5,875 nt of DNA. Origin: a virus. Its lineage: Duplodnaviria > Heunggongvirae > Uroviricota > Caudoviricetes. The stretch lies in IMG/VR virus record IMGVR_UViG_2529292977_000021; one strand, written 5' to 3'. This document shows positions 3,963 to 4,059 of this stretch, in pieces (positions within the stretch are counted from its first letter, which is position 1; the number at the start of each line of letters is the position of its first letter). Under the pieces are notes generated by a model, which was not told the DNA's origin, ran no database searches, and worked only from the letters and a program-made list of their open reading frames with translations. Made by a program: the position numbers and the translations under genes.

Positions 3963-4059
3963 ACCTTCCTCGGTTTAGTGTTTTTTTGCGAGTTTAGTGT
4001 TTAATAAACCATTAAGTCAAGTATTTGCTTGTTTAGTGATTACTAAAGATAATTACCAC
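3963..4059. promoter_or_regulatory. Divergent promoter/operator region (OR-like) between the cro-like gene and the repressor
   Basis: Three TTTAGTG copies (3974-3980, 3993-3999, 4032-4038) at 19 and 39 bp spacing. Palindromes GTTTAaTAAAC (3999-4009) and TTTAGTgattACTAAA (4032-4047). Leftward promoter candidate: -35 TTGACT (revcomp of 4015-4020), 18-bp spacer, -10 TAAACT (revcomp of 3991-3996). Rightward candidate: TTGCTT (4025-4030), 17 bp, GATAAT (4048-4053), ending 7 nt before ATG 4060. Confidence 0.6.

Follow-up and report, generated by a model that had tools for sequence, protein, structure and literature searches.

What reads the three copies of TTTAGTG that lie between two divergent genes in this phage DNA? 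A preliminary description had taken them as three sites of one regulator, about two and four helical turns apart and with the last inside a promoter spacer, and had proposed graded, cooperative occupancy as at lambda OR1-OR3, with autoregulation of the repressor. The question is addressed here over the whole 5875-bp stretch that was analysed (the window), which corresponds to the immunity region that the lambdoid cryptic prophage CP-933P/Sp12 carries in Escherichia coli O157:H7. The 97-bp fragment that holds the copies has been studied by EMSA and DNase I footprinting (Jurenas et al. 2021, mBio; PMC8630535), and the repeats differ in nothing from the published sequence. The finding is real and the way in which it was read essentially right, but it is a rediscovery of an operator that is already known. 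We hold, with a probability of roughly 0.9, that the TTTAGTG copies are half-sites of the OR region of the lambda-like CP-933P switch, which is bound by PaaR2 and YdaS and whose recognition unit would be an 18-bp dyad. The anatomy differs from that first proposed: the three-site model is corrected to two conserved dyads and a half-site that is mostly peculiar to the lineage, alongside a competing Cro-like protein and a counterpart at OL.

The locus and its genes

Positions 3600-5100 of the window (1501 bp) match many E. coli O157:H7 chromosomes at 100% identity, and 589 of 5426 complete E. coli genomes contain 80% or more of this region. It is also found, at 98.4% identity, in the 40-kb phage genome record of Escherichia phage Evi. 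The genes, promoters and operators are listed in Table 1. A repressor gene and a cro-like gene diverge from a short gap with back-to-back promoters and shared operators, which is the lambda arrangement, and only 4 bp separate the two -35 hexamers (4015-4020 on the minus strand and 4025-4030 on the plus strand). The published EMSA primers FL1 and FL2 match the window exactly at 3963-3982 and 4038-4059, so that the EMSA fragment of PMC8630535 is window 3963-4059.

Table 1. Coordinates of features in the window. IR numbers are placed by reconstruction from the sequence, the published IR map existing as images; bits are scores of a weight matrix (PWM) made from other genera.
Feature	Position	Strand	Details
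DnaC/IstB-like loader	647-1393	-	
O-like replication protein	1400-2608	-	
ydaT	3238-3663	-	PF06254; phrog 'CII-like activator'
ydaS, Cro analogue, 100 aa	3660-3962	-	PF15943, PF01381 (HTH_3/HTH_XRE); phrog_35; PMC8630535
ydaS-paaR2 intergenic region	3963-4059		97 bp, 31% GC
Site 1, probably 'IR4'	3973-3990	+	7/9 in left half, 3/9 in right; -4.6 bits
PR933P (ydaS-ydaT)	3991-4020	-	-35 TTGACT 4020-4015, 18-bp spacer, -10 TAAACT 3996-3991; consensus scan
Distal dyad GTTTAGTGTTTAATAAAC, probably 'IR3'	3992-4009	+	15/18 to consensus; 22.5 bits, top 18-mer of window
Gap between strong dyads, probably degenerate 'IR2'	4012-4029	+	-18 to -40 bits
PRM933P	4025-4053	+	-35 TTGCTT 4025-4030, 17-bp spacer, -10 GATAAT 4048-4053; start A4060, the A of the paaR2 ATG
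Proximal dyad GTTTAGTGATTACTAAAG, probably 'IR1'	4031-4048	+	16/18 to consensus; 19.7 bits
paaR2, CI analogue, 123 aa	4060-4431	+	PDB 7nkv/8c3k/8c3l; phrog_5736; PMC8630535
paaA2	4452-4643	+	PF21217
parE2	4645-4923	+	PF05016
OL dyad GTTTAGTTTTTACTTGAC	4995-5012	+	14/18; 9.5 bits, 4th-best 18-mer in window
PL933P	5008-5035	+	-35 TTGACT 5008-5013, 16-bp spacer, -10 TAAACT 5030-5035; consensus scan
OL dyad GTTTAATGTTTATTAAAC	5017-5034	+	14/18; 17.1 bits, 3rd-best 18-mer in window

Downstream of PL933P (5008-5866) no recognisable N-like antiterminator was found. The ORFs in this part are small and of unassigned function (5219-5575 and 5648-5866, both on the plus strand), and a zinc-ribbon ORF of 66 aa lies past PL933P on the opposite, minus strand (5354-5554).

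Two further elements were observed. The O-like replication gene contains five copies of (G/A/T)AAGCCCCTT with an 11-bp period, in two clusters (2026-2057 and 2293-2313) that adjoin a CCTGTT/EQ-repeat stretch at 1965-2030; they resemble origin iterons inside an initiator gene, as in lambda ori. Between the parE2 stop codon and OL there is a hairpin at 4942-4988 with 22-nt arms and no T-tract after it. The 83-nt segment 4924-5006 folds at -24 kcal/mol, compared with -11 for shuffles (z = -5.2), and the hairpin could be a terminator or a processing element that insulates the paaR2 operon from PL.

Repeats and operator anatomy

TTTAGTG occurs exactly three times in the window, at 3974-3980, 3993-3999 and 4032-4038, always on the plus strand, just as had been reported. 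The window-wide expectation is 0.61 copies, and three copies were reached in 4 of 200 shuffles. When the 97-bp intergenic region was shuffled alone with its dinucleotides preserved, only 136 of 20,000 shuffles (0.7%) contained at least three copies of any complex 7-mer, and the triplet is therefore unlikely to have arisen by chance, local composition included. A G precedes every copy, giving the 8-mer GTTTAGTG, which is found only at 3973, 3992 and 4031. The third copy does lie within TTTAGTgattACTAAA and is part of the palindrome TTTAGT-gatt-ACTAAA at 4032-4047, inside the 17-bp promoter spacer at 4031-4047. A perfect inverted repeat with 6-bp arms appeared in 645 of 3000 local shuffles and is not unusual by itself; the weight of this palindrome comes from its being made from the repeated motif, and not from palindromy per se. 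The spacings of 19 and 39 bp are correct, but they amount to 1.8 and 3.7 helical turns, so that two and four is a loose description. Integral helical phasing was rejected on these values and on the distances in relatives, which range over 37-39 bp and 18-20 bp.

The 18-mers of the window were scored against the palindromic consensus formed by GTTTAGTAA and TTACTAAAC. A PWM was also built, solely from homologous loci of other genera, and then run on the 5875-bp window. The four best matches to this foreign PWM are 3992-4009, 4031-4048, 5017-5034 and 4995-5012, that is, two dyads at OR and two at OL.

The distal dyad covers the -10 hexamer and spacer of PR933P and has the second TTTAGTG as its left arm, while the proximal dyad fills the PRM933P spacer, includes the palindrome and has the third TTTAGTG as its left arm. 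At site 1 only the left half, GTTTAGTGT (3973-3981), matches an operator half-site; judged from the position of the PR -10 hexamer, it would fall roughly between +4 and +12 on the ydaS transcript. The three copies, which had been treated as equivalent sites, are therefore two full dyads and one half-site, and two 18-mers rather than three score as dyads at OR.

Nor does a count of three agree with the published description, which has four 18-bp inverted repeats with the half-site consensus GTTTAGTAA, IR1 lying over PRM933P and IR3 over PR933P, with IR2 and IR4 degenerate in one half-site; three 'pseudosymmetrical' operators, OR1-OR3, are also listed (PMC8630535). In the window, just as in that description, 18-bp inverted repeats that match this half-site overlap both PRM933P and PR933P. 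The gap between the strong dyads contains the two back-to-back -35 hexamers and a strongly conserved block, GTCAAGTATTTGCTT. A fourth dyad at about 4012-4029 ('IR2') was considered and rejected: the profile of the relatives gives it no support, and the -35 hexamers can explain the conservation.

A second operator set is present at a PL-type promoter beyond the repressor operon, again as in lambda. The two OL dyads lie about 1 kb downstream of OR and bracket the -35 (5008-5013) and -10 (5030-5035) hexamers of PL933P.

The best palindrome is at PRM, whereas a strict analogy with lambda would put the weakest CI site there. Because of this position, the order of affinity would not simply follow the match to consensus.

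Codons 5-11 of ydaS contain CTTAATGATTTAATAAAC (3931-3948), in which the TTTAATAAAC arm found in the distal dyad recurs. It forms a 21-nt inverted repeat (86% complementary) with 3996-4016; it is the sixth-best match to the operator profile in the window (3.9 bits) and lies under the published footprint primer.

Promoters and published regulation

The rightward TTGCTT/GATAAT promoter, proposed as a candidate, is real: 5' RACE places its start at the paaR2 ATG, giving a leaderless mRNA like that of lambda cI, and this start is backed by N-terminal sequencing (MQKKE) and mass spectrometry (PMC8630535). PRM933P falls under the threshold of a consensus promoter scan, which fits the weak basal activity reported for it and an activator-assisted promoter. 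For PR933P, 5' RACE agrees with the prediction, and the -35 and -10 hexamers of PL are identical to those of PR (PMC8630535), as was also found in our scan.

One of the checks that had been suggested, footprinting at increasing regulator concentrations, is already in print. PaaR2 and YdaS each bind the 97-bp region specifically and give several EMSA complexes; in DNase I footprints PaaR2 protects about 78 bp continuously and YdaS protects 27 + 32 bp, both proteins covering both promoters, with YdaS on the PRM933P side at low concentration and on PR933P at higher concentration only (PMC8630535). In gfp reporters, both promoters are repressed, by as much as 45-fold, on induction of PaaR2 or YdaS, PRM responding more strongly to YdaS and PR to PaaR2, while basal (uninduced) PaaR2 raises PRM933P about 4-fold and lowers PR 2.5-fold (PMC8630535). 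The authors ascribe this basal effect to promoter leakiness, PaaR2 being made at a low level from a leaky ParaBAD (PMC8630535). Either PaaR2 or YdaS represses PL933P, which lies downstream of parE2, about 100-fold; the locus is bistable, and loses its bistability when paaR2 or ydaS is mutated (PMC8630535). PaaR2 forms octamers, has no autocleavage motif, and shows no response to mitomycin C (PMC8630535).

The proposal of an autoregulated operator for a CI-like repressor, placed at divergent promoters and occupied in a hierarchy as in lambda OR, essentially matches the published data (PMC8630535); it was the anatomy that was incomplete or off. The reporter fragments correspond to 3987-4060 of the window and leave the TTTAGTG at 3974 outside, whereas the EMSA fragment includes it.

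The same experiments could be read as showing a division of labour, in which the palindrome in the PRM spacer is mainly a high-affinity site for YdaS, PaaR2 prefers the PR side (3973-4009), and the third TTTAGTG is a sign of anti-repressor action rather more than of autoregulation by the repressor. The order in which YdaS occupies the two promoters and the opposite preferences of the two proteins in repression (PMC8630535) both point this way, as does the combination of perfect PRM arms with an extra half-site beside PR in the CP-933P lineage. Set against these are the continuous footprint of PaaR2, which must include the palindrome, and the repression of PRM933P by induced PaaR2. This reading is possible, although we would not put its chances much above one in three.

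Comparison with related loci

About 100 related loci were compared in total. A scan with PaaR2, using one genome per species, gave 27 loci at 43-76% identity; these include Photorhabdus, Xenorhabdus, Yersinia, Erwinia, Raoultella, Enterobacter, Morganella and Arsenophonus, together with the Betaproteobacteria Massilia, Mycoavidus and Glomeribacter and a Neisseriaceae isolate. At least 120 viral contigs were found by an exact-pattern scan for the PRM -35 hexamer followed by the proximal dyad, and 55 distinct variants of OR from viral contigs were compared.

The relatives have a common block upstream of the repressor gene, consisting of AGTTTAtTAAAcACTAAAC, 5-6 nt, GTCAAGtATTTGCTT, GTTTAGnnaTTACTAATC and aAAAT, with the start codon a few bases on, which points to a leaderless arrangement in many of them. 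The two-dyad layout upstream of the repressor N-terminus is found in most of the 27 loci, from both Gamma- and Betaproteobacteria, and in the 55 viral-contig variants. In most relatives the dyads are at about -67/-68 and -29. The distance between them is 37-39 bp, a distal partner is present in almost all aligned loci, and the proximal dyad stands at the same place with respect to TTGCTT throughout the relatives. One or two more dyads lie downstream of the repressor gene in most of the 27 genomic loci, and in most relatives a YdaS homologue (50-63% identity) is encoded on the other side. The paaA2-parE2 pair was found in none of the related loci examined.

The invariant columns of the profile are symmetric (G1, T3, T4, A5 and T14, A15, A16, C18), and the G at the 3' end of TTTAGTG is not among the conserved positions. 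The comparison thus supports the 18-bp dyad GTTTAgt-N4-acTAAAC as the conserved unit, and not the 7-mer direct repeat that had been proposed as the recognition unit.

The half-site at 3974 behaves differently from the dyads. Among the 55 OR variants, GTTTAGTGT is found at 18-20 bp from the distal dyad in the CP-933P type only, and a related half-site stands at 11-12 bp in a small number of other variants. Among the sampled loci the half-site is largely confined to the CP-933P lineage.

The orientation of the distal dyad is likewise peculiar to the CP-933P type, the ACTAAAC arm being on the other side in every other variant compared (among L001-L027 and L030-L109); its 3992-4009 sequence is the exact reverse complement of GTTTATTAAACACTAAAC, the commonest distal 18-mer among the other variants. 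The CP-933P type has in addition perfect proximal arms together with the GATAAT -10 hexamer.

The T-run at 3981-3987, compared in L028, L029 and the viral contigs L030-L109, is polymorphic: it is T7 here, T6 in E. coli M3 and TTTTCTT in phage Evi. Because its length varies, the distance from the half-site to the distal dyad is 18, 19 or 20 bp in contigs of the CP-933P type. The E. coli records themselves are uninformative for the sites, 580 of 611 being at least 99% identical, with variation limited to the T-run and one base.

These data also bear on a model of direct repeats, in which the sites are three tandem units of about 24 bp, TTTGC-NN-GTTTAGTG-wTTAmTAAA, and are asymmetric as lambda OR1-OR3 are. 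The units would coincide with the three TTTAGTG copies, and possibly with the published 'pseudosymmetrical' OR1-OR3; all three copies of GTTTAGTG have the same orientation, a repeat search groups 3985-4008, 4024-4047 and 5010-5033 as direct repeats of 24 nt, and Jurenas et al. allow for the use of both direct and inverted repeats (PMC8630535). This is hard to reconcile with a distal operator that is flipped in all relatives outside the CP-933P type (for example GTTTATTAAACACTAAAC), a change that a site for a symmetric dimer accommodates more easily, or with conservation that is symmetric around the dyad centre. The third copy is moreover missing from most relatives, and the distance between sites 1 and 2 ranges over 18-20 bp. 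Orientation-independence and symmetric conservation favour recognition of dyads over directional repeats, and we consider the direct-repeat model unlikely.

That the copies arose by chance in an AT-rich promoter region and bind no protein themselves is given almost no credence: the region has only 31% GC and some 21% of its shuffles contain a perfect 6-bp-arm inverted repeat, but three copies of one 7-mer occur in only 0.7% of local shuffles, the motif is found again at OL and is conserved across genera, and two regulators footprint the region (PMC8630535), the footprints and the cross-genus conservation effectively refuting this explanation.

The regulator proteins

The first 71 residues of PaaR2 match PDB entries 7nkv, 8c3k and 8c3l (E = 5e-41), which are its own entries, titled 'Phage repressor protein CI', and its only PDB matches. 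When the literature was searched for 7NKV, 8C3K and 8C3L, no description of the structures came up. A Pfam scan of the 123-aa protein gave no family and no S24 peptidase domain; the protein has a short helical tail, and this matches the published lack of an autocleavage motif.

Across homologues the first 55 or so residues are nearly invariant (KEKSYLSQL..G..SFGEKAARR.E..Y.M), while the C-termini differ. In Yersinia and Erwinia, both confirmed by Pfam, and in L021, a Peptidase_S24 C-terminus is joined to a PaaR2-type N-terminal domain, with the same operators. The repressor ORFs start at 1501 in L016, L017, L018, L019, L021 (a record labelled Martelella alba) and L024. The last of these, from Acerihabitans, has a C-terminus that looks similar. 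The distribution of C-termini suggests that domains have been shuffled among repressors of a single specificity, some of them inducible and others not.

It is conceivable, although we hold this only tentatively and think it somewhat more probably wrong than right, that the PaaR2-type DNA-binding domain and its 18-bp dyads form a single, widely travelled immunity-specificity cassette, of which CP-933P is a derived variant. The domain and dyads occur in Gamma- and Betaproteobacteria and in at least 120 viral contigs, and may have been recombined with different C-termini, either an S24 autoprotease or the oligomerisation tail of PaaR2; the S24 forms may be SOS-inducible and the form with the PaaR2 tail not. 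The derived traits of CP-933P would be the inverted distal dyad, the perfected arms, the better PRM -10 hexamer and the 3974 half-site. If this is true, the slippage-prone T-run (18, 19 or 20 bp) could tune the locking of PR in a prophage that is no longer inducible.

YdaT, the CII analogue, has its own site. The perfect inverted repeat TTGATT-ttcatg-AATCAA at 3653-3670, which spans the ydaS stop and the ydaT start, is its operator OM beside PRE933P (PMC9986795). Binding of YdaT at the TTTAGTG sites was rejected, its box TTGATT-N6-AATCAA being at 3653-3670 and the protein being reported not to bind the paaR2-ydaS region.

Discussion

The reading that we prefer is that of 18-bp dyads shared by PaaR2 and YdaS. 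Dimers would probably read GTTTAgt-N4-acTAAAC, with half-site centres 10 bp apart. Such a spacing is typical for a helix-turn-helix dimer. One dyad (3992-4009) lies over the strong leftward PR933P and the other (4031-4048) in the spacer of the weak rightward PRM933P, from which a leaderless paaR2-paaA2-parE2 mRNA is made. PaaR2 and YdaS both bind the OR DNA and compete for it. According to the published reporters, PR is closed and PRM stimulated when PaaR2 is low, and PRM is closed too when it is high, which is negative autoregulation; in the published footprints YdaS fills the PRM side first, probably through a preference for the PRM dyad, and its own promoter at higher concentration. Together these patterns give a bistable switch. 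The OL dyad pair (4995-5034) controls PL933P, and since PaaR2 forms octamers it may loop to OR. The 3974 half-site would presumably be filled only when PaaR2 spreads to it from the adjacent dyad, by oligomerisation or cooperatively, and would then add a further block to PR just downstream of the likely start.

This arrangement shares much with lambda OR. Divergent PR and PRM share operators at which a repressor and a Cro-like protein compete, PRM is weak and makes a leaderless repressor mRNA, and it is stimulated at low and repressed at high repressor; there is a second operator set at PL, the repressor is octameric and the switch is bistable. By contrast, no clear sequence similarity of the proteins to CI or Cro was detected: YdaS scores 16.2 bits against P22_Cro, under the cutoff of 30.2, and PaaR2 matches its own PDB entries only. 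Where lambda has three comparable 17-bp sites at 23-24 bp spacing, CP-933P has two strong 18-bp dyads 39 bp apart, different in sequence from those of lambda, plus degenerate or half sites. Unlike CI, PaaR2 has no S24 autocleavage domain and is not SOS-inducible, and a toxin-antitoxin pair stands in place of rexAB.

The Rac prophage of E. coli K-12 has the same gene order, with a repressor, divergent ydaS-ydaT and then replication genes. It encodes members of the YdaS and YdaT families, to which the CP-933P proteins are 26% and 31% identical respectively (PMC8630535), and its YdaT box is nearly identical to the CP-933P TTGATT-N6-AATCAA at 3653-3670. Rac YdaT also binds the racR-ydaS intergenic region, whereas the CP-933P protein does not bind at paaR2-ydaS. 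RacR was not among the matches of the PaaR2 homology search, which used one genome per species.

Relative to the published description (PMC8630535), the comparison adds that only two of the four OR inverted repeats behave as conserved full dyads, that the element at 3974 is a half-site largely confined to the lineage, and that the distal dyad is inverted relative to the family. The 3974 half-site is thereby flagged as an element outside the published reporters, which is useful for follow-up and does not amount to a new kind of system. The locus itself is a worked example, established in 2021, of a lambda-style bistable switch that is made of proteins without clear sequence similarity to lambda CI and Cro and controls a toxin-antitoxin pair in the cryptic prophage of a pathogen, and the comparative footprint would narrow the bases read by PaaR2 and YdaS to the symmetric core GTTTA-N8-TAAAC.
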